NCBI GenBank assembly: GCA_963555755.3
Contig: OY820905.2
Location: 4,480,001-4,544,000 of the forward strand
DNA length: 64,000 bases
Direction: 5' to 3'
Origin: Nitrospirales bacterium
GTDB taxonomy: Bacteria > Nitrospirota > Nitrospiria > Nitrospirales > UBA8639
Position numbers and translations under genes: made by a program. The notes below the pieces were generated by a model. It was given only the letters and a program-made list of their open reading frames with translations. It had not been told where the DNA came from and made no database searches. Positions 3,256-23,071 of the stretch are shown in pieces; position 1 is the first letter of the stretch, and the number at the start of each line of letters is the position of its first letter.

Positions 3256-4332
3256 ATGGCCAAAAATTTATCGAGTCTCATCCAGCGAAATCTTCAGGGC
3301 AAGACCATTTTGTTAACGGGAGGAACAGGGTCATTTGGTCAACGGTTGACCAAGATCTTGGTCGAGCACTTCTCGTTTAAAGCCCTGAGGATCTTTAGCC
3401 GCGACGAGTTGAAACAGCACGATATGGCTCGCCAGTTCACTGATGATCGGATTCGGTTTTTTATTGGCGATGTGCGGGATGCGAGTCGAGTGGAACGAGC
3501 GGCGCAGGGGGCAAACGTGATTATTCACGCAGCCGCGATGAAACAAGTCCCGATCTGCGAATACAATCCGTTTGAAGCGGTACGGACGAACGTGCTCGGC
3601 GCCCAAAATCTCATTGATGCGGCGATTGATCAACATGTGCAACAAATTTTGGCCCTGAGTACGGATAAAGCGGTGAATCCGATTAACCTCTATGGCGCCA
3701 CAAAGCTCTGTGCCGAACGTATTTTTATTCAGGGGAATAGTTATGCTGGTACGCGGCCCACCCGGATGAGCTGTGTCCGTTATGGGAATGTGCTGGGAAG
3801 CCGTGGCAGTGTGGTGCCAATCTTCGAGTTTCAACGGAGCCAAGGCAACGTTACGGTAACGGATAAGCGGATGACGCGGTTCTGGCTGACATTGGATCAA
3901 GCGGCCTGGTTTGTATTGCGCTCCCTCACACTTGCCCGTGGTGGAGAAATCTTCGTGCCCAAAATCCCTAGTATTAGGATTTTGGATTTGGTTGAGGCTA
4001 TGGCGCCGGACTGTTCCATCCAATATATAGGGCTTCGGCCGGGAGAAAAGCTTCACGAAGTCCTGTTGACTGAAGATGAGAGTCGGCATGCGATGGAATA
4101 TGACGATTTGTTTACGATTCTTCCTGAATATCAATCGTGGCAGGGGCGGGCACGCGAAGGGACTGCGGGAAGACGCCGATCCCTTCCCGAAGGCTTCCGG
4201 TACAGCAGTGACAACAACACCCACTGGCTGTGCGTTCCCGAACTAAGAACTCTCTTAGTGCAAAATGGGTTTAGTACGGGAACCTTAGCGAACAAGAAGT
4301 CTCGCGGGTTGGTGGTGTATGCAAAAGTTTGA
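3256..4332 (+). CDS. pseB: UDP-N-acetylglucosamine 4,6-dehydratase (inverting) PseB
   Basis: TGGTGSFG, FSRDELKQ, HAAAMKQVP, STDKAVNPINLYGATK, RYGNVLGSRGSV, GLRPGEKLHE; SD before ATG 3256. Confidence 0.93.
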   Translation: MAKNLSSLIQRNLQGKTILLTGGTGSFGQRLTKILVEHFSFKALRIFSRDELKQHDMARQFTDDRIRFFIGDVRDASRVERAAQGANVIIHAAAMKQVPICEYNPFEAVRTNVLGAQNLIDAAIDQHVQQILALSTDKAVNPINLYGATKLCAERIFIQGNSYAGTRPTRMSCVRYGNVLGSRGSVVPIFEFQRSQGNVTVTDKRMTRFWLTLDQAAWFVLRSLTLARGGEIFVPKIPSIRILDLVEAMAPDCSIQYIGLRPGEKLHEVLLTEDESRHAMEYDDLFTILPEYQSWQGRAREGTAGRRRSLPEGFRYSSDNNTHWLCVPELRTLLVQNGFSTGTLANKKSRGLVVYAKV

Positions 4333-4337
4333 GGCTC

Positions 4338-5747
4338 ATGATTCCCTACGGACGGCACAGTATTGACGACGCTGACATCGCTGCAGTGGTGGATGTCTTG
4401 GCATCGGATTGGTTGACCACGGGGCCGACACTTGTCGAGTTCGAACAGGCGGTGGCCCATACGGTAGATGCACCAGAGGCTGTTGCTGTTTCCAATGGAA
4501 CCGCTGCGCTTCATTGCGCGATACATGCCATTGGATTGCAACCGGGAGATGAAGTCATTCTCCCGCCGCTCACGTTCGTGGCCACCGCCAATGCCATTGT
4601 GATGTGTGGGGGTGTGCCGGTGTTTTCCGATGTCGATCCCGAGACTCTGTTACTCGATCCTCAAGCCGTTGAAGAGAAAGTGACTCCTCGAACCAAGGCT
4701 ATCCTTGCGGTGGATTATGCGGGACAACCATGTGACTACCATGCGCTTCGTCATATTGCGAAGCGGCACGGGTTGGTCCTTATGGCTGACGCCTGCCACG
4801 CCTTAGGGGCTTCGCTTCATGGTTGCCCAGTGGGTTCGTTGGCTGACCTCACGATCTTTAGTTTTCATCCGGTGAAGGCCATGACCACAGGCGAAGGTGG
4901 AATGGTGGTCACGCAGCAACCCGAGTATGCCAACCGGATGCGAATCTTTCGCAACCATGGCATTACCACGGATCATCAAGAACGGTTGGCGAGACAGACG
5001 TGGGAATATCAGATGATCTGTTTGGGCATGAATTACCGATTGACAGATTTTCAATGTGCGTTGGGGCTGAGCCAGTTACGGAAACTTCAGAGGTGGGTCA
5101 TGCGTCGCCAGACCATTGCCTCTCAGTATGACAACGCTTTGGCCACTATTCCTGGGATTCATCCGGTCTTGGCCCGTTCTGGTGTGTCTCATGCCTACCA
5201 TTTGTATGTGATTCAGGTCGAGAAAGAAAAGTTTGGAGTAGACCGCGGCACCTTGTTTTCGTTACTGCGAGAACAAGGGATCGGCGTTCAGGTGCATTAC
5301 ATTCCCGTACATTTACAACCGTTTTATCAAAATCAATTTGGAACAGGTCCGGGGCTGTGCCCGATTGCAGAGGCAGCATACGAAAAGATGCTTTCCCTTC
5401 CGATTTATCCGTTACTTCAAGATCAAGAAGTTGATGGAATTGTTAACGCTATTCAAAAGGAGGCAAAAAGAATGTCAACGTTTAGTTTGAGTGATCCAAA
5501 CCTTAGCTCAAGCATTAGAGGGCTTTTCCTTTTCCGAATAGGTCAACGAGTATGTCCCCTTCACCAGGATGGGAGACCAGATCTTGGTAAGGTAGGGGAA
5601 GTCATTGATGGAGAATTAAAAGTTGCGAATCCTGAAAAAGCCGGGTCGCGTGGTGAGACCTATCAGGTCCGCTTAGAGAATGGTGAAGTTATAGCCCTAA
5701 ATTTTCCTGAAATAACTGAGGCCCCAGAAATGGTATCCCAGGCGTAA
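4338..5747 (+). CDS. pseC: DegT/DnrJ-family sugar aminotransferase PseC with an extra ~91-aa C-terminal domain
   Basis: MIPYGRHSIDDADI, SNGTAALH, DACHALGA, FSFHPVKAMTTGEGG, QVHYIPVH; tail starts at internal ATG 5472. Confidence 0.9.
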   Translation: MIPYGRHSIDDADIAAVVDVLASDWLTTGPTLVEFEQAVAHTVDAPEAVAVSNGTAALHCAIHAIGLQPGDEVILPPLTFVATANAIVMCGGVPVFSDVDPETLLLDPQAVEEKVTPRTKAILAVDYAGQPCDYHALRHIAKRHGLVLMADACHALGASLHGCPVGSLADLTIFSFHPVKAMTTGEGGMVVTQQPEYANRMRIFRNHGITTDHQERLARQTWEYQMICLGMNYRLTDFQCALGLSQLRKLQRWVMRRQTIASQYDNALATIPGIHPVLARSGVSHAYHLYVIQVEKEKFGVDRGTLFSLLREQGIGVQVHYIPVHLQPFYQNQFGTGPGLCPIAEAAYEKMLSLPIYPLLQDQEVDGIVNAIQKEAKRMSTFSLSDPNLSSSIRGLFLFRIGQRVCPLHQDGRPDLGKVGEVIDGELKVANPEKAGSRGETYQVRLENGEVIALNFPEITEAPEMVSQA

Positions 5748-5785: not shown

Positions 5786-6679
5786 ATGGTTCAGAAATTA
5801 AATCCTAGAAACATTTCTTTCGTCGCAGAAGTCTCAAGTAATCATCACCAAGACTTGGAGCGGTGTTTTTCGTTTATCGATCGCGCCGCTGCCATAGGAT
5901 GTGCGGCAGTCAAGTTTCAGTTGTTTAAAATACGCGAGCTCTTTGCACCTGCAGCATTCGAACACAATGAGGCGCTGTTGCGGCGGGAACAATGGGAATT
6001 GCCAGTGTCCTTCATCCCGCAATTGGCTGATCGATGTTGTCAACAACGCATTCAATTTTCTTGCACACCTTTTTATCTGGAGGCTGTGACGGAACTCGAA
6101 CCGTATATTGATTTTTACAAGGTCGCCTCATACGAGTTGTTGTGGGACGATTTGCTCAAGGCTTGTGCTCGAACTGGAAAACCCGTGGTGCTCTCCACGG
6201 GGATGGCGACACTCGATGAAGTGGTCCATGCCACAAGGATAGTGCGCGACGCCGGATGTCACGATCTGACGGTGTTGCACTGTGTCTCCGGGTACCCCGC
6301 TGCTCCCGATGAGTGCAATCTCTCCTGCATCGAGACACTCCGCGGACAGTGCGGATGTTTGGTTGGGTGGTCGGACCATACGGTCAACCCTGCGGTGATT
6401 CATCGCGCGGTGCATCGATGGGGCGCCACGATGGTGGAATTTCATTTGGACTTGGATCAACAGGGTGAAGAATATCAGTCTGGGCATTGCTGGCTTCCGG
6501 AAGAAATCGCTCCAGTGATTCAAAGTCTGGGCTGTGGTTTTGGTGCCGATGGGCATGGCGAAAAAGTGCCAACCGCCAGTGAGATGGATGAGCGCCAATG
6601 GCGTGCCGATCCTGTCGATGGTTTACGACCGCTTCAAGAAGTGAGGGAAGCATGGAAACAACCAGCCAGCGTCCTGTAG
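5786..6679 (+). CDS. Nonulosonic acid synthase (NeuB/PseI/SpsE family), short form without SAF domain
   Basis: VAEVSSNH, AVKFQ, KVASYE, LSTGMATLDEV, LHCVSGYP, GWSDHT, VEFH. Confidence 0.88.
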   Translation: MVQKLNPRNISFVAEVSSNHHQDLERCFSFIDRAAAIGCAAVKFQLFKIRELFAPAAFEHNEALLRREQWELPVSFIPQLADRCCQQRIQFSCTPFYLEAVTELEPYIDFYKVASYELLWDDLLKACARTGKPVVLSTGMATLDEVVHATRIVRDAGCHDLTVLHCVSGYPAAPDECNLSCIETLRGQCGCLVGWSDHTVNPAVIHRAVHRWGATMVEFHLDLDQQGEEYQSGHCWLPEEIAPVIQSLGCGFGADGHGEKVPTASEMDERQWRADPVDGLRPLQEVREAWKQPASVL

Positions 6680-7431
6680 CGATTGTGCAGGCTCGGATGG
6701 GCTCGACCCGCTTGCCGGGAAAAGTCATGCGATCTCTGATCGGGAGGCCAGTTCTCTGGCATGTCGTGGATCGTCTCCGGTTCTGTCAGAACATCGGTGC
6801 GATCGTCGTCGCCACGACAACTGAGCGGGAAGACGATGTTATTGATGAGTGGTGTTGTGCGCATTGGGTTCGATGCTTTCGTGGGAGCCAAGAGGATGTC
6901 CTCGATCGCTATTATCACGCCGCGAAGTTTTATCAGGCGGCTTCCATCCTTCGGATCACTGCAGATTGTCCGGCCCTCGATCCCGTGGTGGTTGATGAAT
7001 TGCTGAGCCAATATGAGGCCCATGCCTATGATGCTTGTGGATTAGCGGGAGGATTCCCTGATGGACTGGATTGTGAGGTGATGTCATTCTCTGCGTTAGA
7101 ACGAGCGTGGAAGGAAGCCGAGATGGCATCGGAGCGTGAGCACGTCACACCCTATATTCATGCACACCCTGATCTCTTTCGCGTGGGAAAATTTGAGCGA
7201 TTTTACAATCTTGCACATCATCGATGGACGCTTGACGAAGAACCGGATTTCCATTTTCTGGAGCGAGTGTTTCATCGCTTGTATCAGGAAGATCGCCCGT
7301 TTCTGACGTCGGATATTTTGGCCCTGTTAGAGCGTGAGCCTGCATTGATGGACATCAATCAAGGGATCACTCGAAACGAAGGCTATCTCCGATCCCTTCA
7401 ATCCGATTATCGTGTCGGTTCAAGGACCTGA
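6652..7431 (+). CDS. SpsF-like cytidylyltransferase (CMP-nonulosonate synthetase family)
   Basis: AIVQARMGSTRLPGKV, RGSQEDVLDRY, RITADCP, PDGLDCEV, REHVTPYI, RWTLDE. Confidence 0.88.
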   Translation: METTSQRPVAIVQARMGSTRLPGKVMRSLIGRPVLWHVVDRLRFCQNIGAIVVATTTEREDDVIDEWCCAHWVRCFRGSQEDVLDRYYHAAKFYQAASILRITADCPALDPVVVDELLSQYEAHAYDACGLAGGFPDGLDCEVMSFSALERAWKEAEMASEREHVTPYIHAHPDLFRVGKFERFYNLAHHRWTLDEEPDFHFLERVFHRLYQEDRPFLTSDILALLEREPALMDINQGITRNEGYLRSLQSDYRVGSRT

Positions 7432-7614: not shown

Positions 7615-8973
7615 ATGGTTGCCCTTACTCATTCATCTCCTCTTGCGGTTTCTCCCGAACGGAAATCTTCCGGACAACGGTTGTATGACAAGGCCAAACG
7701 GCTGATTCCCGGGGGCACGCAATTGTTGTCCAAGCGGCCGGAATTAATTTTGCCGGAGCAGTGGCCTGTGTATTATGCCCAGGCGAAGGGCATTGACGTC
7801 ATCGATCTCGACGGCAACGTGTATAAAGATATGAGCCTCATGGGAGTTGGGGCCTGTGTGTTGGGCTATGCCGATCCTGAAGTCGATGGGGCGGTCAAAG
7901 CGGCGGTGGACCATGGCGTGATGTGTACGCTCAATGCACCGGAAGAAGTGGAATTAGCCGAATTATTGTGTGAACTGCATCCCTGGGCTCAGATGGTACG
8001 GTATGCCAAGACCGGTGGGGAAGCCATGGCCATCGCGGTGCGTATAGCACGGGCACATACCGCACGAGAGAAGGTGGCCTTTTGTGGCTATCATGGGTGG
8101 GCGGACTGGTACCTGGCTGCCAATCTTGGCGATGACGATGCGCTTGATGGTCATTTATTACCTGGCTTGGAACCAGCAGGGGTGCCCAGAGGGTTACGGG
8201 GGACAGCATTGCCCTTCCATTATAATCGGATCGATCAATTGCGAAAGATTGTGGATGAACATCGAGACGATGTGGCGGCGATTGTGATGGAACCGCAACG
8301 GGGCCAGAGTCCTGACCCCGGATTTCTGGAAAATGTTCGGGATCTCGCCAGACAAACCGGCGCGGTGTTGATCTTTGATGAAATTACCACCGGGTTTCGG
8401 ATGACCACCGGAGGCATTCATCTCCTGTTGGGGGTGGCGCCGGATATCGCGGTGTTCGCCAAAGGCATGGCGAATGGATATCCCATGGCTGCAATTCTTG
8501 GTACGTCGACGGTCATGGAGTCGGCGCAACGCACCTTCATCAGCAGTACGAATTGGACGGAACGAATCGGACCCGTGGCGGCGTTGGCCACCATTCGGAA
8601 GCATCGGCGCGAACACGTCGCCTCCCATCTGATCATGATTGGGAATATGGTCAAAATGGGATGGCGAAAGGCTGCGGAACATGTTGGGCTTCGAATCTAC
8701 TTGGAGGGCCTGCCGAGTTTAGCGCATTTTGGGTTTAACCATAGCGATCATATTAACCTGACGACATTGTTTTCCCAATTGATGTTGGAGAAGGGTTTCC
8801 TGGCTTGCGACCAGTTCAAACCGTCCTATGCCCATGAGATTGATGATATTGCCGAATATTTGGAAGCGGTATCGGATGCGTTCTTAACGATTGCCGAAGC
8901 CGTGGCCTGGGGTGATGTGGAGCGACACTTAAAAGGCCCTCCGGCGCAAAAAGGATTTTATCGTCTGACATGA
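7615..8973 (+). CDS. Class III PLP aminotransferase (GSA-aminomutase-like, glycan-cluster type)
   Basis: IPGGTQLLSKRPE, KTGGEA, CGYHGWADW, LIFDEITTGFR, PDIAVFAKGMANGYP. Confidence 0.88.
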   Translation: MVALTHSSPLAVSPERKSSGQRLYDKAKRLIPGGTQLLSKRPELILPEQWPVYYAQAKGIDVIDLDGNVYKDMSLMGVGACVLGYADPEVDGAVKAAVDHGVMCTLNAPEEVELAELLCELHPWAQMVRYAKTGGEAMAIAVRIARAHTAREKVAFCGYHGWADWYLAANLGDDDALDGHLLPGLEPAGVPRGLRGTALPFHYNRIDQLRKIVDEHRDDVAAIVMEPQRGQSPDPGFLENVRDLARQTGAVLIFDEITTGFRMTTGGIHLLLGVAPDIAVFAKGMANGYPMAAILGTSTVMESAQRTFISSTNWTERIGPVAALATIRKHRREHVASHLIMIGNMVKMGWRKAAEHVGLRIYLEGLPSLAHFGFNHSDHINLTTLFSQLMLEKGFLACDQFKPSYAHEIDDIAEYLEAVSDAFLTIAEAVAWGDVERHLKGPPAQKGFYRLT

Positions 8974-9033: not shown

Positions 9034-10119
9034 ATGGGCCAGGACACTTCACCAATCATTCTCATTCGATGTGATGGAAGTTATGATGTTGGCTTAGGGC
9101 ATGTGATTCGTTGCCTAGCGTTAGCAGATGAACTGTGTTCTGTTCATGAATGTCGGGTGAAGTTTCTTATGCGATATGGTCCTGAAGGAATTGATATGGC
9201 GCGAACTCACGGGTATTCCGTGCTCACGCCTGGGCATGAAATACAGGCACACGATATCACCTGGCCCCTCAGTCTGATTCGTCGTGCCCCAGTAGATATG
9301 GTGGTGTTTGATATTCGTGATGACTTTCCCCGACATGCGATGGACTCCTTGCGAGAAAGCGGAACGGTAGTAGCTGTGATCGATGATATCAGTCCCCGGT
9401 GTTTGTCAGCAGACTTGGGCTTTTTCCCGCCAGTGCCGCAACTCGACCGTATTGATTGGAGAGGAAGTCCTGGTCAGCGTTTTGTGGGGTGGGAGTGGGT
9501 GCTGTTACGGCGAGATATTCGAGAATTACAAAATGTGTCAAAACCCCAACAAGAAAAAGTGCAAGTTCTTGTGACCATGGGTGGAAGTGATCCGCATGGG
9601 TTTACGCTCAAAGCTATCCGGGCTTGTCAAAGGGTGAGGACGAACATTGAAGTGAAAGTCGTTCTTGGCCCGGGGTTTTCAGCTCACCAAGAATTGCAGA
9701 AACTCGTGAATGGGTTGAACGATCATATGCAAATTTATTCGAATATCAAAAATCTTCCGGAGCTGATTCATCAGTCTGATTTGGTCGTAGGGGCTTTTGG
9801 AAATACGGCCTATGAGGCTGCGGCCTTGAAACGATTTGGGATGTATCTGTGTGGAACACCGGACCATGTGGAATCCGCATCACGATATATGCAGGCAGGC
9901 TTTGGTGTGTCCTTAGGGCTGGGTAGTGAAGTGACTGATGAGCAGTTAGCCCTGGCAATCGGAAAATATTCGAACTCTTCGTTGGAGATTAGCATCGACC
10001 AACCAGGCACGAATGACAATTCAATTGATGGTTTAGGCGTGACCAGGATTGCGGAAAAACTCGTTCAGGAGATACATGGCTCGCGAAATGGAATCCAGCA
10101 GGCAGTGGCAGCAACATAG
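9034..10119 (+). CDS. pseG: PseG/SpsG-like UDP-sugar hydrolase (GT28-like fold)
   Basis: IRCDGSYDVGLGHVIRCLALA, LVTMGGSDP, IDGLGVTRIA. Confidence 0.82.
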   Translation: MGQDTSPIILIRCDGSYDVGLGHVIRCLALADELCSVHECRVKFLMRYGPEGIDMARTHGYSVLTPGHEIQAHDITWPLSLIRRAPVDMVVFDIRDDFPRHAMDSLRESGTVVAVIDDISPRCLSADLGFFPPVPQLDRIDWRGSPGQRFVGWEWVLLRRDIRELQNVSKPQQEKVQVLVTMGGSDPHGFTLKAIRACQRVRTNIEVKVVLGPGFSAHQELQKLVNGLNDHMQIYSNIKNLPELIHQSDLVVGAFGNTAYEAAALKRFGMYLCGTPDHVESASRYMQAGFGVSLGLGSEVTDEQLALAIGKYSNSSLEISIDQPGTNDNSIDGLGVTRIAEKLVQEIHGSRNGIQQAVAAT

Positions 10120-11011
10120 TGGCTTGGTGCTTGATCGTGTCAATGAGTTTGATGTGATTGAGTGCCTGTCTTGTGGTTACAAACATGTCGTGCCGATTCC
10201 CACTCAAGAGGAATTAGAGCAGGTCTATCGTGAAGATTATTATTCTCATGAAAAACCCTTGTATTTGGATGAACATCAGGAAGATTTGGATTGGTGGAAT
10301 CTTGTCTATGACGAACGCTATGACTACCTAGAGTCTCAACTTCCAGGGGAATCAAGAAGTCTTGTAGATATTGGCTCTGGGCCAGGCTATTTTCTTCTTC
10401 GAGGAAAGGCCCGTGGGTGGAAAACGACTGGAGTTGAGCCGTCAAAGCGTGCGGCCGCTCATAGCCGAGACCTTGGGTTAGATGTTCGAGAAGGGTTTGT
10501 GGATGAGCCCTTGGTGAAATCGTTGGGTACTTTCGATGTGGTCTATTTGCATGAGGTATTGGAACATATCCCGAATCCTGCTTCTTTGTTATCGATCGTG
10601 ACTCAATTACTCAAACCTGGAGGCATTCTGTGTGTCATTGTTCCCAATGATTATAATCCCCTTCAAAAGGCACTGAGAACGACCATGAACTTTGAGCCCT
10701 GGTGGCTCGCGCCACCGCATCATATTAATTATTTTGATCATGAGTCGTTGCTGACATTGTTGAAAAACCAGGGGTTCGGCATTCTTTCCCGAAGCTCCAC
10801 GTTTCCGATTGAATTGTTTCTGCTGATGGGGATGAACTATGTCGGAGATTCCTCCATGGGGCGCATGGTTCATCGGCAAAGAAAAAACATGGAATTGAAC
10901 CTGACAAAAATTGGTTGTGCTGAATGGAAACAACGTACATACCAGGCATTTGCGCAACAAGGCATTGGTCGAGAGGTTGTCGTGTACGCACGCTTGGCCT
11001 CGTTCGAATAA
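10076..11011 (+). CDS. Class I SAM-dependent methyltransferase with N-terminal CxxC
   Basis: ECLSCGY, LVDIGSGPG, GVEPS, EVLEHIPNP, LKPGG, PPHHINYF. Confidence 0.88.
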   Translation: MAREMESSRQWQQHSGLVLDRVNEFDVIECLSCGYKHVVPIPTQEELEQVYREDYYSHEKPLYLDEHQEDLDWWNLVYDERYDYLESQLPGESRSLVDIGSGPGYFLLRGKARGWKTTGVEPSKRAAAHSRDLGLDVREGFVDEPLVKSLGTFDVVYLHEVLEHIPNPASLLSIVTQLLKPGGILCVIVPNDYNPLQKALRTTMNFEPWWLAPPHHINYFDHESLLTLLKNQGFGILSRSSTFPIELFLLMGMNYVGDSSMGRMVHRQRKNMELNLTKIGCAEWKQRTYQAFAQQGIGREVVVYARLASFE

Positions 11012-11029: not shown

Positions 11030-11920
11030 GTGTTACAAAATATGAATAATTTGTATCAGGACATAGATTGCAAATTCCTTCTTATTGGACGAGGGTCAAT
11101 TGGTAGGAAGCATGAACAGAATGCCCACGTTTTAGGCGCACAGATCGTTACCGTTGATCCTGACCCAAAACAGGAAGCCGACTTTCATACTGTTGAACAG
11201 GCAATGGCTTCTTGTGGGGAAGATTTTTTCTCCCATGCCCTTGTGGCTTCTCCTGTGCAATGTCATTACGCCACCCTTCGACAGTTATTAGAGTATCGGG
11301 TGCCGGCAATTCTTGTGGAAAAACCGCTGGTGTTGCCAGAAGAACTCGCGTTAGTTCGTGCACTGTCGTCGCATTCATCACACCAATCAGTGTTTGTGGG
11401 TTTTAATTGGCGGTTTAATTCTGCAGTTCAACATCTCAAACAAGAAATAGTACGTGGTGCCCTCGGTCCCATTCATGTGGTGCAGTTGTGGGCGCGGGAA
11501 TGGGTGCCCCGTTACCATGGACATGTGGTCCTGGAAAGTGGATCTCATATTTTGGACACCGCACGGTACTTGCTTGGGAACATGAGAGTGGTCGGAGCAC
11601 ATGTGAGTCAGCATGGAATGTTGGGGGATGCCGATGAGGCTGGGTCCTTTTTATTGGAAAGTGAGTGTGGCGCTCATGTATCGGTCCATGTCAATTTTAT
11701 TCATTTCGGGTCCTATGACTATACGATTAACATTCAAGGAGAGATTGACAGTGTGAGCTGTCAACCTGATCGTTTTGAACCTATGCACCTGCGAGAGCTT
11801 GAAGCGTTTTTCCAGGGCAACCCAACGGTGTTGGCGACCTTAGACGATGGTGTGAAAAATATGGAATTATTAGAGGGCATTCTCGTGCCTGGGAGTGGTG
11901 CGATGGCACATGCGAGGTAA
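11030..11920 (+). CDS. Gfo/Idh/MocA oxidoreductase
   Basis: LIGRGSIG, ILVEKP, VGFNWRF, ESGSHILD. Confidence 0.82.
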   Translation: MLQNMNNLYQDIDCKFLLIGRGSIGRKHEQNAHVLGAQIVTVDPDPKQEADFHTVEQAMASCGEDFFSHALVASPVQCHYATLRQLLEYRVPAILVEKPLVLPEELALVRALSSHSSHQSVFVGFNWRFNSAVQHLKQEIVRGALGPIHVVQLWAREWVPRYHGHVVLESGSHILDTARYLLGNMRVVGAHVSQHGMLGDADEAGSFLLESECGAHVSVHVNFIHFGSYDYTINIQGEIDSVSCQPDRFEPMHLRELEAFFQGNPTVLATLDDGVKNMELLEGILVPGSGAMAHAR

Positions 11921-13147: not shown

Positions 13148-13764
13148 AAGGAAAAACGGCTTGTCTTTCTCGAAATGGTCGAGGAGGCATTGGGTCTATT
13201 CTCCGCGAGTCTTTGATGAAGTCCGGAGTCACAATCCTGGATGATGGTGAATCTCCTGAGGCGGTAGATTTTGCTATTTGCACGGCAGGGAAAATGTTTG
13301 TGCGGGATCCGGGAACGTTGGCGGAGGATGAAGTCAATCAATTGTATGATGCGAACTATTTCTTCCCCCGAATGTTTACGGAACGGCATATCCAAGCCAT
13401 GCGGACTGCCAAGAAACCTGGAATCATTTTGCATGTGGGATCCAACGCGTCGCGATACGGAAATCTCGGCGCCGCCGATTATGCAGCGATGAAGGCCGGG
13501 CTTGCGAAGTATTTGGAATTGCGTGGGCAAAGTGTTCGAGGAGATGGCATACGGTTATCGTTGATTAATCTTGGCGCAGTGGACTCAGAGTTTTGGGGGA
13601 AGGTGTGCCAATCCGCGGATCCGGCGTTATTGAAAACCATTATGCCGGCTCCGGAAAAAGCCCTGACGTTGGAAGAAGTCTCTGACTTGCTCTTAGCGGT
13701 TCTTCAGATGCCCACACGGTTAGTTGTGAAAGATGCCCTGGTCGTGAGTGCCGACTTTCAATAA
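13135..13764 (+). CDS. Short-chain dehydrogenase/reductase
   Basis: GRGGIG, CTAG, VGS, DYAAMK (YxxxK), INLGAVDSEFW. Confidence 0.8.
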   Translation: MVGLKGKTACLSRNGRGGIGSILRESLMKSGVTILDDGESPEAVDFAICTAGKMFVRDPGTLAEDEVNQLYDANYFFPRMFTERHIQAMRTAKKPGIILHVGSNASRYGNLGAADYAAMKAGLAKYLELRGQSVRGDGIRLSLINLGAVDSEFWGKVCQSADPALLKTIMPAPEKALTLEEVSDLLLAVLQMPTRLVVKDALVVSADFQ

Positions 13765-15135: not shown

Positions 15136-16337
15136 TGGGGCAGCCTGTTGAGGTGCTGATTGTCGGGACGGGGATGTATGTCTGCGGTCGTGGCACTGAC
15201 GGGTATGGGACCATCTTACCCAGTGTGATGCAAGCGTATCGTGATGGATTGGTCAGCCGAATAGTGGTCGCTGGCACCCGAGAGTCCTCCATCAAGTTTC
15301 TCAACAATCAAGTCGAGGCATTACGCCAGCAATTAGGGATTGATGTAGAGGTTGAGGGGTATCCGAAATCGGGAAATGATCCCGAGGCGTATCGAAAGGC
15401 CCTTACTCAACTTGGGCCACGAAGCTGTGTGATCGTTGCGGTGCCTGACCATCTGCATGGTCCCATCGCTCGAGAGATGTTGGAGGCGAATCAACCGGTT
15501 ATGCTCGTGAAGCCTTTCACGCCGACAGTCAAAGAAGGGCAGGAGTTATGCCAATTGGCACGGGCTAAAAATCTCTATGGGGTTGTTGAATTTCATAAGC
15601 GATGGGATTTAGCCAACAGAAAACTCCAGGAGGTGATCGAGCACAAACGATTGGGTATTCCGTTGTATGCGCTTGTAGAATTCAGTCAGCGAAAACGTGT
15701 TCCACAAGAAATATTTGGGAGTTGGGTCGAGCAGACGAATGTGTTTCAGTATCTTGGGGTTCATTATGTTGATCTCCTGGCCCATGTTTTTAAAGCGATA
15801 CCACAACGTGCCATGGCGGTTGGACAATCAGCCTATCTCAATGGTTGTGGGAAACATACGCAAGATTCCATTCAAGCAATAGTAGAGTGGGCCATTCCAG
15901 GATCGGTCACGCCGTTTGTTTCCATGTTTTTGGTGAACTGGGTAGATCCGAATTCTTCCTCCGCCATGTCCTATCAGGCGATTAAGGTTATTGGAACCAA
16001 AGGTCGTTACGAAAGTGATCAAAAATGTCGTGGCCAACAACTCGTGACAGACGATGACGGAATAGAGGACATCAATCCTTACTTCACGCAATCGTATTCC
16101 TATGGGACAGAGGGCCGAAAGGAATACCTTGGCTATGGTATTGAGAGTATTCGAACCTTTTTAGATGATGTGTGGCGCTTACTTGAAAAGACAGTCACTC
16201 TTGAGGAACTGGAACAATCCCGTCCCACCTTTCAACAGGCATTGATTTCAACAGCGGTAACCGAAGCGGTTGGGCAGAGTCTGGAGTGCGGAGGTATTTG
16301 GATACCCATAAAGAATGTGTCGGAAGCTATGGCCTGA
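15132..16337 (+). CDS. Gfo/Idh/MocA oxidoreductase
   Basis: IVGTGMY, VAVPDHLH, MLVKPF, VEFHKRWD, YLGVHYVD. Confidence 0.82.
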   Translation: MMGQPVEVLIVGTGMYVCGRGTDGYGTILPSVMQAYRDGLVSRIVVAGTRESSIKFLNNQVEALRQQLGIDVEVEGYPKSGNDPEAYRKALTQLGPRSCVIVAVPDHLHGPIAREMLEANQPVMLVKPFTPTVKEGQELCQLARAKNLYGVVEFHKRWDLANRKLQEVIEHKRLGIPLYALVEFSQRKRVPQEIFGSWVEQTNVFQYLGVHYVDLLAHVFKAIPQRAMAVGQSAYLNGCGKHTQDSIQAIVEWAIPGSVTPFVSMFLVNWVDPNSSSAMSYQAIKVIGTKGRYESDQKCRGQQLVTDDDGIEDINPYFTQSYSYGTEGRKEYLGYGIESIRTFLDDVWRLLEKTVTLEELEQSRPTFQQALISTAVTEAVGQSLECGGIWIPIKNVSEAMA

Positions 16338-16478: not shown

Positions 16479-16730
16479 TTACCTTGTGGTCAGAGATTCC
16501 TCAACCGCCTTTCGAATATATTTCTGGTAAGAGACGCCTTGTTCGCTGGCCTTTTTTCGGACTTCAAAAAGCAGTTCAGGGGGAAAGCGTAGATTGACCT
16601 TTTCTGTTTTCGGAAGAAATTCGAATGTCACCCGTTGGGCTTTTCTGGGGTCAATATAGTCAGTCAGATCCTGTTCCAGAAACTGTTCAACTTCTTTATC
16701 GGATTTAAATTTCGGCGATTTTTTCTTCAT
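16479..16730 (-). CDS. BrnA/CopG-like antitoxin
   Basis: PKFKSDKEVEQF...DLTDY...KVNLRFP...GVSYQKYIR (RHH-like C-terminus); overlaps the toxin gene. Confidence 0.85.
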   Translation of the reverse strand: MKKKSPKFKSDKEVEQFLEQDLTDYIDPRKAQRVTFEFLPKTEKVNLRFPPELLFEVRKKASEQGVSYQKYIRKAVEESLTTR

Positions 16731-17013
16731 ATTCCTTAGCCTCCTTCTTGTGCATGTGCCTGGCACTGATGGGCCTGATCAGTGTTTCAGCATCCTGGAT
16801 ACGAAAGGTAAAAGCTACAAGCATGGGCCTCCCTTTGGGAGACGGGCCATAGGCGATATATCTTTCTTCCGATTGGGAGTGATGGATATCCGGTATGACA
16901 AACAGGCCACTCTGCTGGAAAAATTCTTCGATTCCCTTAGGGCGAAGGCCGTGTTTACAGCACTTGTGCTTGTTGGCAGAATCCCAATCAAATCCTAGAG
17001 CCTGTATTTTCAT
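16705..17013 (-). CDS. BrnT family toxin
   Basis: GFDWDSANKHK..KHG...HSQSEERY...VAFTFR...IRPISARHM. Confidence 0.9.
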   Translation of the reverse strand: MKIQALGFDWDSANKHKCCKHGLRPKGIEEFFQQSGLFVIPDIHHSQSEERYIAYGPSPKGRPMLVAFTFRIQDAETLIRPISARHMHKKEAKEYEEKIAEI

Positions 17014-17052: not shown

Positions 17053-17058
17053 CTCATT

Positions 17059-17162: not shown

Positions 17163-19190
17163 GTGCAACTGTATGCAATTTTCCATCTGAACCTCCTGTA
17201 TTCATCCATTAAAGAAGAACAACGGTATGAAGTGCTGCACTGTTGCTATTGGCCATTACTCCGTTTGGCCCAAGACCTTAACCTTCCCATTGGCATTGAA
17301 GCCTCCGGGCTCACCCTTGAAATTGCTGAGGCTTTGGATCCTGCTTGGGTCCAGACATTGCGTCATCTAGTGACTGAGGGGTCTTGTGAATGGCTTGGTA
17401 GTGGTTACACGCAGCTGATTGGCCCTTTGGTGCCAGCTCAGGTCAATGCCAAGAATCTTCAATTAGGTCATGAAGTATATGAACGTCTTCTTGGTCTGCG
17501 CCCGAAGGTGGCGTTTGTCAATGAACAAGCGTATTCCGCAGGCCTCGTTCAGCACTACCTGAATGCCGGCTACCAAGCCATTGTGATGGAGTGGGAGAAT
17601 CCTGCCCATAATCATCCAGAGTGGGATCCAGCGTGGCAGTATCTTCCGCAACGAGCCTGTGGTTTGGATGGCGAGAGTATCCCGATAATTTGGAATACAT
17701 CCCTCTCCTTTCAAAAGTTCCAGCGTTATGTACATGGGGAAATGAACTTACCTCACTACATTGAATATGTGGCCCAACATCGTTCGGACCGTGTAAGAGC
17801 GTTTTCCGTGTATGGGAATGATGCGGAAGTTTTCGGTTTTCGCCCTGGGCGATATGAAACAGAAGCGCCTCTTCATCCGGAAAGAGAATGGACACGAATC
17901 CAGGAGGCCTTTCGTACTATTCATGCGGACCCACGATTTGAATTTGTGACACCTAGCCAAGTTCTTAACCTGGAAGCTCTTCCAGGAGCTGGTCATTATT
18001 TGACCTTGGAATCTGTTTCGAGTCCTGTCCCTGTAAAAAAACAAGCCAAGTATAACCTGCTTCGCTGGGCGGTGACGGGGCGGGATGATTCTCAAATTAA
18101 TGCAAGGTGTTGGCAAATCTATGAATGGTTTCAAGGAAAAGATTCTGTCACACCACAAGCCTGGCGAGAGTTGTGTTATCTCTGGAGCAGTGATTTCCGC
18201 ACACACATTTCTCCGAAGCGATGGCAGGCTTTTCAATCTCAATTGGAGACTGTTCAACAAGCCTTTGTGGATAAGGCTACTCAATCTCATAAGAAGAAAG
18301 AAGCCATTCCGACGAGAAGATCCTTATCCAAACAGTGGGTAATCCACCGGGATCGTACCATGGTGACGGTTGAAACAGATTGTGTAAAGCTTCGAGTAAA
18401 TTGTTTGAAAGGGTTGGCGATTGACGGGCTTTGGATAAAACAGGTATCAGATTTTCCATTAATTGGGACTCTGCCACATGGATTTTATCACGACATTTCC
18501 ATGGGAGCTGATTACTTTTCCGGACATCTCGTATTCGAATCTCCTGTGCAACCCAAGGTGACAGATTTATCACCTGTTGAGCCAATCGTTGAGTCAATGG
18601 ATGGAAATGCCGTTGTCAAGATTAGTGGCAGTATTGCCACTAAGTTCGGGATGATTCGAAAAGAATTGGTCATTGCCGGCGATGGTCAGGTCACGCTTCG
18701 ATATGATTTAGATTGGAGGGAAGTTCCCCCTGGGGCTCTTCGATTGGGCCATGTGACTCTTCATCCATCTGCCTATGATGTAGAAGATCTCATATTTGAA
18801 ACCCACAATGGTGGATATAGTCCAGAGACGTTTCCTCTAAAAGATTGTTCCGTGGATCATGGACGTCCGGTCTCATTTCTTGTATCAGCCAACAATGGTT
18901 TTGGGTACACCGAGGGAAGTTTAGTATTTCGGGATACACGAACTAGCATCCGTGTGCAAAGTCGCCAGTCCCAAGGGTATGTCATTCCTCTCTTATCTGT
19001 GCATCCCGTGTCACCTTCCTATTTTTGTCGCATCAGTTTTTCCGCCATGGAATTCGATGACACCACTCGTGATCCTATAGCCCGAACACGTCGGGAGGTG
19101 TACGAATTTATGCTTTCGGCAAAGCGGGAAACACCTTCTCGCGTTCTGCAGGATCAACAGGAAGGGATTGTATCGGCAGTATCATGTTGA
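17163..19190 (+). CDS. Glycoside hydrolase family 57-like (deacetylase/GH57 barrel) protein
   Basis: FHLNLLYSSI, CYWPLL, IEASGLTLE, GSGYTQLIGPL, VNEQAYS, YGNDAE, WSSDFRTH. Confidence 0.7.
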   Translation: MQLYAIFHLNLLYSSIKEEQRYEVLHCCYWPLLRLAQDLNLPIGIEASGLTLEIAEALDPAWVQTLRHLVTEGSCEWLGSGYTQLIGPLVPAQVNAKNLQLGHEVYERLLGLRPKVAFVNEQAYSAGLVQHYLNAGYQAIVMEWENPAHNHPEWDPAWQYLPQRACGLDGESIPIIWNTSLSFQKFQRYVHGEMNLPHYIEYVAQHRSDRVRAFSVYGNDAEVFGFRPGRYETEAPLHPEREWTRIQEAFRTIHADPRFEFVTPSQVLNLEALPGAGHYLTLESVSSPVPVKKQAKYNLLRWAVTGRDDSQINARCWQIYEWFQGKDSVTPQAWRELCYLWSSDFRTHISPKRWQAFQSQLETVQQAFVDKATQSHKKKEAIPTRRSLSKQWVIHRDRTMVTVETDCVKLRVNCLKGLAIDGLWIKQVSDFPLIGTLPHGFYHDISMGADYFSGHLVFESPVQPKVTDLSPVEPIVESMDGNAVVKISGSIATKFGMIRKELVIAGDGQVTLRYDLDWREVPPGALRLGHVTLHPSAYDVEDLIFETHNGGYSPETFPLKDCSVDHGRPVSFLVSANNGFGYTEGSLVFRDTRTSIRVQSRQSQGYVIPLLSVHPVSPSYFCRISFSAMEFDDTTRDPIARTRREVYEFMLSAKRETPSRVLQDQQEGIVSAVSC

Positions 19191-20227
19191 ATTCACCAAC
19201 ACAGGAGAACATGCTTTGTTCCGAAACAGGAAGAAGTCGTGCTGGAACTGAGCGCAAGCATATCACTATCGCCAAAGATCCGACTCGCCATTTAGCGTTC
19301 CCTGATGTGTGCCAGGCACGATCAGGTGAGATGTATGTCGTGTATCGGGACGGTCAGCAACATGTCGATCAGTCGGGTCGAGTCATGGTTGTTCAAGGAT
19401 CGGGCTCTGCCGAACAGTGGGAATTTGGTCAGCCTATGGTCGTGTGTGATACAGATTGGGATGATCGAGATCCATCCATTGTTGAACTGTCCAATGGATC
19501 GCTTCTTATTAATTTTTTTCGATTGAATATTGCGACCAAGGAATTGAAATTATCACTGACCCAGTCTTGGGATAAAGGAGAGACCTGGTCAGAGCCATGG
19601 GATGTGCACGTTCCAGGATTTACCAATACCTTGGCCGTGAGTGATGCGATTGTGGAATTGCCATCTGGAGAATGCCTGATGGCGGTCTATGGAGTATCGA
19701 ATTCAGGGGAGAGTGGATCGTTTGTGTTGAGATCCCAAGATACGGGGAAAACGTGGCCTGATGTCATACCGGTAGCCGTCGCAGACGCTCCCATTTATGA
19801 AGAGCCTGCGTTGGTGTATCGGGAGAATGGGCAACTTGTGACCTTGTTAAGAACAGATAATCGTGGGTTGGGGTATGTGTATCAGATGACTTCTTTTGAT
19901 GATGGCTACACTTGGAGTCAACCGGAACGTTTAGATCTTTGGGGATACCCTTCTGATTTGGTGGCATTGGCAAATGGTGAGTTGCTTGCCACGTATGGAT
20001 ATCGTCAGTTGCCAACCGGGATTCGATACTGTCTCGCCAAAGGACCAAACCGTTGGTCTATTCGTCAAGAAAGAATCCTTCGGTCAGATGGTCATGATGG
20101 AGGAGAGGTAGGCTATCCATCTTCTGTTGAGTTAGGAGGGGGCGAAGTTGTGACGGTCTATTATTTTACAGACCCATGTGGAGGCATGCCCTATATTGCA
20201 GGGACCGTCTTTCGATATGAATCTTAG
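19184..20227 (+). CDS. Sialidase-like beta-propeller (BNR/Asp-box), no signal peptide
   Basis: Asp-boxes SWDKGETW, SQDTGKTW, SFDDGYTW; HLAFP, DDRDPSI, YEEP, GYPSSV. Confidence 0.82.
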   Translation: MLNSPTQENMLCSETGRSRAGTERKHITIAKDPTRHLAFPDVCQARSGEMYVVYRDGQQHVDQSGRVMVVQGSGSAEQWEFGQPMVVCDTDWDDRDPSIVELSNGSLLINFFRLNIATKELKLSLTQSWDKGETWSEPWDVHVPGFTNTLAVSDAIVELPSGECLMAVYGVSNSGESGSFVLRSQDTGKTWPDVIPVAVADAPIYEEPALVYRENGQLVTLLRTDNRGLGYVYQMTSFDDGYTWSQPERLDLWGYPSDLVALANGELLATYGYRQLPTGIRYCLAKGPNRWSIRQERILRSDGHDGGEVGYPSSVELGGGEVVTVYYFTDPCGGMPYIAGTVFRYES

Positions 20228-20383
20228 GGTTCGCGCAAGAATAACTTCCCATGTTTTGGCGTCGATCCATCCCGTCTGGCGGCGTTGCTCGTCCTTTCCA
20301 TACGAGGAGTATGCGCAGTCCTCGCGCCTTGCCAGACCGGCGTCTCAGCACCCAAACAGGGGAAGTTATTCTTGCGCGAACCC
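20227..20383. mobile_element. MITE with family-B-type ends and family-A-like interior
   Basis: Perfect TIR GGGTTCGCGCAAGAATAACTTCCC; flanks TTA/ATA; located at the sialidase stop. Confidence 0.85.
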
Positions 20384-20398
20384 ATAGCAGGTACGTCT

Positions 20399-23071
20399 AT
20401 GACCATTTATCAGAAAAACCTTAAGGCCCTCAGTATTCACCATCCAGAATTGGTCGAACTCTTGAACGGTGAGATCTCCGTTGCCCATATACAAGTATTG
20501 CGAGCCAAAAGCGGAGCCCGTCGTCTTCTGGTTCGTGGAGAATCAGGGGCAGCTGTGGCTATACACAATGAAAGCGATCCTGAAGGGGTCGCACAGCGCA
20601 CGGCAAAAAAAATCTCCCATCGCCAAGGGGTGTTGGTATTGCTGGGAATGGGATTAGGGTACCTTGCCAAACTTCTCGGTCAGCGTGTCAACGAAGAGTT
20701 AGCCTTGCTGGTGTATGAAGCCGACCCCGGCATTTTTAAAACAGCCATGGAATACGTGGATTTAACGAAACTCTTAAATTCCTCCATGGTGAAAATTCTT
20801 GTTGGGAGTGAGGCCAACGTAGGGTCTTGGTGTTATAGCTATATGCTGAAAACTTTCGGGCATGTTCATGTGATTTCCTATGAACCAGCATTTCGGGCGG
20901 CTCCGACGGTGTACCATCAAAAACGAGATAAGGAATTATTGCCCTATACTCAAATCAATCTTATTAATCATGCTACGGCGAATCATTTAGGCCCGCTTTT
21001 CGTTCGAGGGATGTTGGAAGCTATTCCGCATGTGGTCAGGGTCCCTGGAGTGAATCGATTGCGCAATCTTTTCGCCGGCAAGCCAGCTATCCTCATTGCT
21101 GCCGGACCATCGTTAGGAAAAAATGTCCATTACTTGAAATCGGCAAAGGGGCGCGCTGTTCTTATTTCTGCGGATACGGTGTTAGGGTATCTCTTGGCCC
21201 GTGGGATCATTCCAGATTTTGTGGTGAGCGTGGATCCTCAAGATGAAACATATACGAAGTACCATGGTGTTGATATTCCTAGTGAGTTGGCTTTGGTTTT
21301 TCATCCGTCCTGTAACGCAGAGATTGTGAAACATTTTCCTGGGCCAAAATATGTGAGTGCCAGCAGTATGGGAATCTATCAATGGCTACAGAATTTCTGG
21401 CCAGAAAAGGGAAGCGTGGAACAAGATGTGCAATGTCAAGTGCATCTAGGATTTAATCTTGCACAATGGCTTGGCTGTGATCCTATCATTATCGTGGGAC
21501 ACGATCTCTGCTACACAGATGATTTGATGCATGTCAAAGGTGGAAGCTATCTCACAAGAGAAGAAGAAGACAAGCACGTGGCTGAAGGGGTGAACACCCG
21601 TAATATATTTGGACAGATTGTCGGAACCTATCCTGTTTTTTGGGGATACAAGGCCACGATGGAACGAAAAATCGAGGCTTTTCCAGGCCGAGTCGTGAAT
21701 GCGACGGAGGGTGGGGTCAACTTACAAGGAGCAGAAAATCTTCTTTTTCAAGATGCCTTTGCGGAATGTTGGGCTGGAGAAGTTATTGATGTCGGTCAAT
21801 CCCTTCGAAAAGTGAATCAGAGCTGTGTGGAAAGCCCGGACTGGGAAGGTCTTCTTCAGGAGCTGAGAGATCGGGCAAGAGATTATTTTAGGCTTGAGCG
21901 GGTGTCCAAACGGTTATGTTCGCTTATGGACAAAATAGAAAAACATGTGGAGGGAACCCAAGAGATTGATCACAATCTTAGCAAGCTGACGAATCAAGCC
22001 GAACGGCTCACGCAGCAAGTCCCTCGGTATGGTACAGCACTCGGGCTTCTTCAGTTGATTGATTTTCGGTTAGAGGAATATATGTGGAAGGAGAAGACCG
22101 ATGCCATCGATTCCATAGAAGACCCACTCGATCGACTGAGGAAACAGCTTAATCGAGGCCGACGTTTTTATGGCGATGTGATGAAGGCCATTGCCTTTTT
22201 TCGACCGGATTTGAAACGGTTAGAGGAACGACTAGAGTGTCAGTGGAAGCAAGAGTTGAGGAATGAGCCTGGTCTTGCGATCGCGTCTAGGTTGGATAGG
22301 ACAGAAGAACTTATCTCTATTGGACTGTTTGATGCGGCCTCGCAATTAATTTCTCCACTGTTGGAGTCTGAGAGACAAGCTTCGACAGAGCCTCGATTAG
22401 CCCTTTTGAGTCTTCGTGTTCCCCTTACACTGAATCAAATCAGTCTTGCCTGGAAACGATCTCAAGAATTTAGGACGTTACTTTCTGTCACTTCTGAGGG
22501 GAAGGACTTGATGGCCCAAGCCAAAACTTTATGGGTTACTTGGCAAAAAAAGCAGCAGGAAGTCAATATATTGGGCAGTCTTTCCTCATCCCCTACCATG
22601 GAATCCGGAAATTTTTATTTTCGAGCTGGAAACCATACACGAGCGGCTCAACACTACAAGAACTTTTCAGAATCTTCCAATATCGATGATGCGGTTCGTG
22701 GAGAAGCACTGTATAGGCTTTCAAAGGCGTACCAGGCTTTAGGAGATATGATGGCTTCAGTTGAGGCTTTGGAAGGTGCGATGCTAGCCAGTCCAGCCGA
22801 TCCACGAGTGTATTATGACCTTGGGGTGCTTTCTCTCCAAGAACAACGAGTGGAGGTGGCTGAGCAGTTTTTCGAGAAAGGCACAGAAGTCGCCCTTGAG
22901 GATCCTGCTTTTTGTGAGGCAGTTGGGGCCGTGTTCGCTGCGGCGGGAGCTCATGAACAGGCTATACAATTTTTTGAGAGAGCCTTGATGCAGTGTCCTC
23001 AAGATCCTGACCTGATAAAAAAAATTGCGCAATCCTGCCAGGCCTTTGGTGAACCGGTTCACCTGGTCTAA
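20399..23071 (+). CDS. Motility-associated factor (Maf/DUF115) flagellin glycosyltransferase with C-terminal TPRs
   Basis: IYQKNLKAL, LGMGLGY, AAGPSLGKN, PDFVVSVDP, GHDLCY, VVNATEGG; TPR-like helices in the last ~170 aa; directly upstream of fliC. Confidence 0.88.
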   Translation: MTIYQKNLKALSIHHPELVELLNGEISVAHIQVLRAKSGARRLLVRGESGAAVAIHNESDPEGVAQRTAKKISHRQGVLVLLGMGLGYLAKLLGQRVNEELALLVYEADPGIFKTAMEYVDLTKLLNSSMVKILVGSEANVGSWCYSYMLKTFGHVHVISYEPAFRAAPTVYHQKRDKELLPYTQINLINHATANHLGPLFVRGMLEAIPHVVRVPGVNRLRNLFAGKPAILIAAGPSLGKNVHYLKSAKGRAVLISADTVLGYLLARGIIPDFVVSVDPQDETYTKYHGVDIPSELALVFHPSCNAEIVKHFPGPKYVSASSMGIYQWLQNFWPEKGSVEQDVQCQVHLGFNLAQWLGCDPIIIVGHDLCYTDDLMHVKGGSYLTREEEDKHVAEGVNTRNIFGQIVGTYPVFWGYKATMERKIEAFPGRVVNATEGGVNLQGAENLLFQDAFAECWAGEVIDVGQSLRKVNQSCVESPDWEGLLQELRDRARDYFRLERVSKRLCSLMDKIEKHVEGTQEIDHNLSKLTNQAERLTQQVPRYGTALGLLQLIDFRLEEYMWKEKTDAIDSIEDPLDRLRKQLNRGRRFYGDVMKAIAFFRPDLKRLEERLECQWKQELRNEPGLAIASRLDRTEELISIGLFDAASQLISPLLESERQASTEPRLALLSLRVPLTLNQISLAWKRSQEFRTLLSVTSEGKDLMAQAKTLWVTWQKKQQEVNILGSLSSSPTMESGNFYFRAGNHTRAAQHYKNFSESSNIDDAVRGEALYRLSKAYQALGDMMASVEALEGAMLASPADPRVYYDLGVLSLQEQRVEVAEQFFEKGTEVALEDPAFCEAVGAVFAAAGAHEQAIQFFERALMQCPQDPDLIKKIAQSCQAFGEPVHLV

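Follow-up and report, generated by a model that had tools for sequence, protein, structure and literature searches.

How does a flagellar locus that carries genes for pseudaminic acid (Pse) synthesis acylate its sugar when the acetyltransferase PseH is absent? The question is raised by an island of 15 co-oriented genes on the plus strand between fliW and fliC (positions 3256-23071, Table 1) in a 64,000-nt stretch of the genome of a Nitrospirales bacterium. We refer to this whole stretch as the window and to the source genome, which is 99.4% complete, as G000. Pfam and TIGRFAM profile scans recovered, on the same strand and within this span, the gene set that a first-pass annotation of the DNA had named, with the exception of a sialidase label discussed below. 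We lean towards the view that the island encodes a PseH-less pathway resembling the sfm system of Shewanella oneidensis, which would place a Pse-type sugar on flagellin with its N7 acylated by an ATP-grasp ligase, using a sugar acid and not acetate. This reading is based on the absence of PseH, the recurrence of the ATP-grasp gene with a clade of NeuB-type synthases that lack the SAF domain, and the Shewanella precedent.

A short synthase and a pathway without PseH

PseB and PseC both exceed the cut-offs of their models. The PseC frame runs on at its C-terminus for about 90 aa more (5460-5747), an extension without a Pfam match that is shared with loci L049 and L051 and absent in genomes G002, G003, G005 and G008. 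The next gene encodes a NeuB-family synthase that stays below the cut-offs of both models (PseI, 157 against 340; NeuB, 159 against 400). Its length of 297 aa without an SAF/antifreeze-like domain was overlooked in the first-pass annotation and is the key to the family. The predicted structure is a plain TIM barrel (pLDDT 89.8) with 6NCS as top fold match, and the alignment with Neisseria meningitidis NeuB runs through the E/K/Q/H/E/H motifs, whose residues we take to be the functional ones. A C-terminal tail R-x-W-R-x-D-P-x-D-G-x-R-P is conserved in an alignment of 44 sequences. The best 120 homologues listed measure 283-306 aa at 64-95% identity; the search as a whole returned 6,208 of 6,733 candidates at E<=1e-30, among which some longer NeuBs may be counted. 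PMC8208679 already mentions SAF-less NeuBs in environmental bacteria. G000 holds one nonulosonate-type synthase; a second PF03102 match, a 337-aa gene among aromatic-pathway genes, was read by eye as a DAHP synthase and discarded as a candidate. In the PseG-like hydrolase the sequence GLGH aligns with the GFGH motif of Campylobacter jejuni PseG.

With the canonical PseBCHGIF pathway of Campylobacter and Helicobacter the island shares PseB, PseC, a PseG-like hydrolase, a NeuB-family synthase, a CMP-sugar synthetase and a Maf transferase. It differs in that PseH is not found, the synthase is SAF-less and below the PseI cut-off, the synthetase is of the SpsF and not the PseF type, and nine extra enzymes are present. 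The first-pass annotation had seen no GNAT/PseH or hexapeptide acetyltransferase and had pointed out that a pseH elsewhere would complete the standard pathway. Both families were indeed absent from the 24 proteins scanned around the island, and the profile search for PseH gave 0 matches at E<=0.01 in the entire genome. None of the 10 NeuD model matches in the genome lay above its cut-off. Seven generic GNATs are encoded elsewhere, the nearest about 220 kb from the island. PseH was likewise above cut-off in none of five other genomes carrying the SAF-less NeuB clade. No GNAT or hexapeptide protein was detected at E<=1e-7 in the 46 of 110 neighboring open reading frames (ORFs) scanned at eight loci, from which mostly homologues of window genes had been omitted, and the S. 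carbinolicus locus has none in its annotation of 32 features. A cross-locus GNAT query was set aside as insensitive, having missed the annotated GNAT of a Halorussus locus.

Gene neighborhoods and probable exchange of the middle cassette

A gene-neighborhood search, which had been proposed along with the first-pass annotation, showed that ATP-grasp and GH57-like genes recur beside the SAF-less NeuB clade. The clade travels with PseB and PseC, a PseG-like hydrolase, ATP-grasp, a methyltransferase, a short-chain dehydrogenase/reductase (SDR) and usually the GH57-like protein. Carriers make up 9 of 115 genomes in the organism's own family, and 2/401, 6/301, 0/251 and 1/351 genomes in broader samples. 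Among 13 bacterial loci other than that of G000, several of which are broken by contig ends, ATP-grasp is found in eight and GH57 in seven. When the 120 listed homologues of NeuB and of GH57 were compared by eye, at least 11 agreed in the length of the longest contig, which we used as a proxy for linkage.

In G015, which belongs to another genus, gene order is unchanged from pseB through the GH57 gene, where the contig ends, and G011, also of a different genus, holds the same genes as the island on two contigs plus a B12 radical S-adenosylmethionine (SAM) enzyme. Both share the radical SAM/SDR/Gfo2 block with G000. The middle of the island varies in other genomes. An aldo-keto reductase stands there both in G003, of the same genus as G000, and in G008. 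It is joined in G003 by transketolase halves, a B12 radical SAM enzyme, a sulfotransferase and an APS kinase, and in G008 by KduI/IolB, a KduD-like SDR and two ATP-grasps. The gammaproteobacterial genomes G587 and G533, with NeuBs 58-63% identical to that of the island, combine an SDR, a methyltransferase, an acetolactate-synthase-like enzyme, ATP-grasp, an SpsF-PseG fusion and GH57, in G587 together with a Maf, and a plasmid locus of S. carbinolicus has FabG, transketolases, ATP-grasp and GH57. The variable slot is always filled by enzymes acting on sugar skeletons, be they acetolactate-synthase-like, transketolase halves, or KduI/IolB with a KduD-like SDR. In G002 (locus L041, G002:C12:46,400-48,800) the island breaks off at NeuB, in a 389-aa frame that matches to about residue 246, and everything after NeuB through fliC and fliD is missing at the site.

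Between G000 and G003 the flanking proteins are close (PseB 86%, NeuB 77%, aminotransferase 83%, FliC 82% identity) and the middle ones divergent (PseG 39%, ATP-grasp 40%, GH57 51%); between G000 and G015 or G011, over the portions of sequence present, identity is 59-64% for ATP-grasp and 64-65% for GH57. The NeuB tree joins G000 with G003 (support 97/96). In a nine-row ATP-grasp tree G000 groups with G011 and G015 (98/99), and the PseG tree gives the same trio (96/98). For ATP-grasp, grouping G000 with G003 was rejected by the approximately unbiased test (p=0.00019), a result that loses some of its weight because the grouping tested had been named only once the pairwise identities were known. 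Because G000 and G003 are separated in the ATP-grasp tree although they belong to one genus, the middle cassette has probably been swapped. The ligase and the hydrolase thus seem to be exchanged along with the side-chain genes, which would suit enzymes that act on the side chain. A fixed core of PseB, PseC, SAF-less NeuB, PseG, CMP-synthetase, ATP-grasp and GH57-like protein would then accept swappable side-chain cassettes.

Relation to the sfm system of Shewanella

According to PMC3765264, sfmABCDE of S. oneidensis encodes a 290-aa NeuB, a 581-aa thiamine diphosphate (ThDP) enzyme, a 255-aa FabG, a 395-aa methyltransferase and a 412-aa ATP-grasp protein; PseB and PseC are present, with no clear PseH, PseG, PseI or PseF. 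The flagellin glycan is described there as mono-N-acetyl-Pse (274 Da) plus C9H16O7 and up to two extra methyls, the additional unit measuring 236, 250 or 264 Da, and the ATP-grasp mutant retains part of the glycan mass. PMC3120886 and bioRxiv 2023.12.03.569772 bear out the dependence on PseB, the masses and the presence of two Mafs. For C9H18O8 we computed one double-bond equivalent, which fits an open-chain polyhydroxy acid.

The island resembles this system in its SAF-less NeuB of about 290 aa, SDR, methyltransferase, ATP-grasp of about 410 aa, PseB and PseC, lack of PseH, flagellar location and second Maf in the genome. The likeness is one of published descriptions, and the link to the NeuB clade is indirect, via G587 and G533, whose loci combine a NeuB of this clade with the five sfm gene types, encoding proteins of similar length. 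Unlike sfm, the island has no SfmB-type ThDP enzyme: no such family occurs among the island proteins, and ThDP queries from G587 and G003 found no match. Its SDR is short, atypical and not FabG-like. What is new relative to sfm is a block without a thiamine enzyme, containing instead a radical SAM enzyme, the atypical SDR, two Gfo/Idh/MocA oxidoreductases (Gfo1 and Gfo2) and a class III aminotransferase; the island further adds the BNR protein. Because the ThDP enzyme is missing, we regard the island as a variant and not a copy of sfm, one that by its design would belong with the sfm-type PseH-less systems and uses a radical SAM enzyme. The locus brings to notice a ThDP-free cassette built on a small radical SAM family.

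The first-pass annotation had called the glycan possibly undescribed. This has to be narrowed, because the pathway type has been described: for sfmABCDE both its genetics and part of the glycan formula are in print (PMC3765264). Within the literature examined, the structure of the Shewanella flagellin glycan itself is unsolved, and its enzyme family is widespread. We found no paper on GH57 or radical SAM enzymes in a nonulosonate locus, on this cluster, or on phage nonulosonate modules of the kind described below, in a search for which most subscription papers and bioRxiv supplements were beyond reach. Such sources may already describe parts of this system. A methylated deoxy-hexonoyl group, 2-methoxy-4,5,6-trihydroxyhexanoyl, is reported on the flagellin nonulosonate of Treponema denticola (PMC13439194).

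Side-chain enzymes and the GH57-like protein

The O-methyl groups in the Shewanella glycan suggest that the island methyltransferase likely O-methylates the acyl group. The radical SAM enzyme belongs to a small family (135 homologues among 1,858 candidates), with CxxxCxxC and conserved C-terminal Cys/His residues in the alignment. Its best PDB profile match is BtrN, at E 6.5e-8 and over 66 positions only, and a conserved N-terminal extension of 85 aa sets it apart further. BtrN and AprD4/AprD3 are radical SAM enzymes of sugar redox chemistry, and BtrN is a radical dehydrogenase upstream of a transamination. The island enzyme resembles both in its C-terminal cysteines of the auxiliary-cluster type, and as with AprD4/AprD3 an SDR is adjacent, the two genes overlapping by 13 nt. 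By analogy, a carbon of the sugar would first be oxidised or dehydrated by the pair and afterwards reduced. A full ortholog of the radical SAM enzyme is present in 4 of 61 relatives, G000 included, with one further weak match; the plasmids and GenBank phages searched gave none. An L-amino acid ligase is among the top PDB matches of the ATP-grasp protein, and full-length orthologues of Gfo2 were found only in G011 and G015.

In the GH57-like protein E121 and D220 are invariant in 54 sequences and align with E123 and D214 of 1K1W, presumably the catalytic residues there. It has the full GH57/GH38 architecture of barrel, helical and beta-sandwich domains, with 4-alpha-glucanotransferase as closest fold, at 13-15% identity to characterised GH57 members. 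Because the catalytic Glu/Asp pair and this architecture are retained, the protein probably cleaves or transfers a glycoside; for the same reasons a CE4/ArnD-type deacetylase was not favored. The adjacent gene, labelled sialidase in the first-pass annotation, can be assigned no further than to a BNR propeller. In the PDB its product comes closest to the uncharacterised protein 5HX0 (E 7e-24), and true sialidases match partially at E>=2e-7. Sialidases carry an N-terminal R-I-P motif; AFP stands at this position in the BNR protein.

The putative acceptor, FliC, is the only flagellin found in the genome, and its central region consists of 29% Ser and Thr. The island Maf ends 286 nt upstream of fliC and scores below the cut-off of the PseD model NF050051. 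The second Maf of the genome (G000:C1:2382344-2384722, minus strand; 42% identical) is solitary and remote from sugar genes.

Phage-borne copies of the module

The radical SAM enzyme was also found in six viral contigs of IMG/VR (L080-L085) at 48-62% identity. L082 and L084 encode pseB, a divergent NeuB, the aminotransferase, Gfo1, the methyltransferase, a PseG-like protein, the SDR, radical SAM, ATP-grasp and SpsF, and the other four contain the later part of that module. These modules of up to ten genes lie mostly upstream of terminase and Mu-type portal genes. In L082 the module directly precedes terminase, portal and major head genes, and similar genes follow in L080, L081, L083 and L085. 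Pfam confirms the portal of L080, and the others were recognised by eye; L084 has no such terminase- or portal-like genes downstream. No PseC, Maf or GH57 and no obvious transferase were found in these phage contigs, nor did GH57 give a match in the viral contigs searched. Two further viral contigs, L064 and L065, carry a NeuB of the same clade as the window.

The closest described case is EpaA/EpaB of Acinetobacter prophages, in which a CMP-transferase and an oxidoreductase act at C8 of Pse and epimerise it (PMC12053666). Phage-borne remodelling is common to both. The modules found here differ in having up to ten genes with their own PseB and NeuB, and in pairing the oxidoreductase with a class III aminotransferase in place of an SDR alone. 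Judging from these modules, nonulosonate editing by phages may go well beyond what the two genes of EpaAB achieve.

Proposed pathway and alternative explanations

In the pathway that we propose from these sequence comparisons, PseB and PseC would yield UDP-4-amino-4,6-dideoxy-L-AltNAc, and the ATP-grasp ligase would link a polyhydroxy acid to its free amine as an amide. The acid might derive from a sugar freed by the GH57-like hydrolase and oxidised by Gfo2. The radical SAM/SDR pair would deoxygenate or epimerise it before or after ligation, and the methyltransferase would O-methylate it. PseG would remove UDP, the SAF-less NeuB would condense the product with phosphoenolpyruvate, SpsF would form the CMP-sugar and Maf would transfer it to Ser/Thr of FliC. 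One option named in the first-pass annotation was likewise a home-made acyl group, attached by the ATP-grasp enzyme, in the place of the PseH product. The neighborhoods and the Shewanella precedent speak for this part; the class III aminotransferase, which the annotation had counted among the makers of the acyl group, probably lies outside the acyl-donor module. This follows from its presence beside GNATs and normal-length synthases elsewhere and its absence from several ATP-grasp loci.

Several points weigh against acylation by a sugar acid. PMC3765264 reports that none of the modification is left in mutants of sfmA-D, whereas a mutant of sfmE can still swim; this is not the simple outcome to be expected if supplying SfmE were the sole task of SfmB-D. 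A cyclic C9 sugar would agree just as well with one double-bond equivalent. Five of the 13 loci have no ATP-grasp in the sequence examined (G002, G476, G701 and G735, L053-type fragments aside); G476, G701 and G735 also have no GH57 there, and the NeuB of G735 is isolated. The phage ATP-grasps do not group with that of G000. Finally, the GH57-like protein keeps the catalytic residues of a glycosidase, and its role in an amide-forming pathway is a guess.

It is unlikely, in our view, that the glycan instead consists of two sugars, with the Pse amine left free, the GH57-like protein acting as a retaining transglycosidase that adds a rare sugar made by the radical SAM, SDR and Gfo enzymes, and the ATP-grasp tailoring this second sugar. 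The invariant Glu/Asp pair, the glucanotransferase-like fold and the compatibility of the formula with a cyclic sugar would suit such a glycan, and the Shewanella authors treat the 236-Da unit as a second residue that they did not resolve (PMC3765264). Yet the island has no nucleotidyltransferase or dehydratase for a second nucleoside-diphosphate sugar, the nitrogen-free Shewanella unit leaves the ATP-grasp no amine acceptor but N7 of Pse, and the phage modules do without GH57.

We give little credence to a third scheme, the one nearest to the wording of the first-pass annotation. In it the joint product of the aminotransferase, Gfo1, radical SAM enzyme and SDR is an amino acid or amino-sugar acid, which is ligated to N7 by the ATP-grasp as an enzyme of the L-amino-acid-ligase type, with no amine formed at C8. 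The LAL_C2 domain of the ATP-grasp and the joint retention of the five genes in the phage modules agree with it, as does the match to BtrN, which acts as a radical dehydrogenase before transamination. The aminotransferase, however, is fused or adjacent to the CMP-synthetase elsewhere and occurs in GNAT loci without these genes; it is missing from G587, G533, G433 and S. carbinolicus, and it has stayed 83% identical to the G003 copy despite the different acyl module of that genome. That an unlinked generic GNAT completes Pse5Ac7Ac, with the middle genes serving another glycan or being baggage, is very improbable: there are seven GNATs in the genome, and the island does accept insertions, as seen from a toxin-antitoxin gene and two dispersed repeats, but none of the GNATs matches PseH, the pseB-to-GH57 order is kept in another genus (G015), island genes overlap their neighbors and the synthase belongs to the SAF-less clade and not to PseI.

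Acylation of N7 by a sugar acid, the reading we prefer, offers targets for assays: the ATP-grasp as a sugar-acid:amino-sugar ligase, a GH57 protein with a new job and, as a possible pair for amination at C8, the two enzymes considered next.

Putative amination at C8

PDB relatives of the class III aminotransferase include, by name, GSAM and aminoglycoside C-6' aminotransferases. In three of ten aminotransferase loci an aldo-keto reductase is linked and Gfo1 is absent, and in the other seven Gfo1 is present without a linked aldo-keto reductase, so that Gfo1 takes the place of the reductase beside the aminotransferase. In the Halorussus locus the aminotransferase lies beside SpsF and Gfo, with an unlinked aldo-keto reductase about 10 kb away. 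Pseudosulfitobacter has it as a fusion with SpsF, next to a GNAT and a normal PseI, and in Legionella serogroup 6 it stands between PseG and a cytidylyltransferase, near GNATs (PMC3694923). It is absent from the G587, G533, G433 and S. carbinolicus loci.

EpaA is a fusion of a CMP-transferase with an aldo-keto reductase that acts on C8 of Pse (PMC12053666), and an 8-amino nonulosonate is reported from Flexibacter maritimus (PMC3210612). Together with the exchange of aldo-keto reductase and Gfo1 and the action of class III enzymes on the exocyclic C-6', these observations suggest that Gfo1 may oxidise the C8 hydroxyl and the aminotransferase may then form an 8-amine, as an add-on separate from the acyl group. 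We put this forward tentatively, as a possibility somewhat short of even. The Kdo8N enzymes KdnA and KdnB of Shewanella also oxidise and then transaminate C8 of an ulosonic acid. KdnA was tried as a class III homologue and dropped, as it was placed in the sugar-aminotransferase family with nucleotide-sugar enzymes. Two findings weigh against the C8 role. The phage modules have no PseC, so that the class III enzyme there may supply the C4 amine, and a Gfo1-like gene occurs without an aminotransferase in a second sugar locus of G003 (L078). G003 holds two further nonulosonate loci in all (L078 and L079), one with a CMP-synthetase, an SDR and the Gfo1-like gene.

Taken together, the product might be an undescribed 5,7,8-triamino nonulosonate with a radical-SAM-deoxygenated, O-methylated acid on N7, and the same cassette, lying among the head genes of tailed phages, might serve these in making or remodelling the sugar. 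We consider the combination doubtful. If true, nonulosonate tailoring by a radical SAM enzyme and a phage nonulosonate pathway of several genes would, within the literature searched, each be the first of their kind.

Other features of the island and the window

Six of the 15 island gene junctions overlap, the G+C content of 46-55% is similar to that of the remaining window, and close homologues carry the source label Nitrospirota. The features and their coordinates are listed in Table 1.

Table 1. Genes of the island and its immediate flanks, numbered by position in the window
Feature	Position	Strand	Basis
fliW (flank)	2167..2661	+	PF02623
csrA-like ORF downstream of fliW	2702-2977		recognised by eye from ORF
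PseB, inverting UDP-GlcNAc 4,6-dehydratase	3256..4332	+	TIGR03589, 465 vs cut-off 408
PseC aminotransferase	4338..5747	+	TIGR03588, 460 vs cut-off 424
SAF-less NeuB-family synthase, SfmA-like, 297 aa	5786..6679	+	PF03102 only
SpsF-type CMP-sugar synthetase	6652..7431	+	PF02348
Class III (GSAM-like) aminotransferase	7615..8973	+	PF00202
PseG-like UDP-sugar hydrolase	9034..10119	+	TIGR03590, 138 vs cut-off 154; aligned to 3HBM
Class I SAM methyltransferase	10079..11011	+	PF13489
Gfo1 oxidoreductase	11030..11920	+	PF01408/PF22725
Radical SAM enzyme, small family, BtrN-like (radical SAM/SPASM)	11948..13147	+	homologue search, alignment, PDB profile match
Short atypical SDR	13135..13764	+	PF00106; YxxxK present
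ATP-grasp ligase with LAL_C2 domain, SfmE-like	13894..15135	+	PF18603, PF13535
Gfo2 oxidoreductase	15132..16337	+	Gfo/Idh/MocA profile
BrnT toxin (16705-17013) and putative antitoxin ORF, insertion between gfo2 and GH57 gene	16479..17013	-	PF04365; antitoxin from ORF list
GH57-like protein	17163..19190	+	PF03065
BNR beta-propeller	19184..20227	+	PF13088
Maf flagellin glycosyltransferase with C-terminal TPRs	20399..23071	+	PF01973 (MAF_flag10/DUF115, 123 bits vs 34.6), TPR
fliC, followed by fliD and fliS	23358..25178	+	profile scan

The brnT insertion is not present in G015 or G011. Two dispersed repeats of about 160-175 bp lie between island genes, at 7431-7606 and 20222-20387, with inverted ends recognised by eye and about 200 genome matches each. 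The second inflates the Maf ORF, whose start we place at the ATG at 20399. Between fliC and fliD, a flaG-like region (25329-25586) contains short ORFs only, where G003 has a 133-aa ORF; it is possibly interrupted. Further downstream, a transposase-like element of two ORFs with an apparent frameshift (39785-41532, by eye) separates lon from bamA, and the remainder of the window (42124-64000) carries, as read by eye, genes for lipid A, Kdo and the lipopolysaccharide core, namely bamA, fabZ, lpxA, lpxB, msbA, waaA, lpxK and heptosyltransferases.

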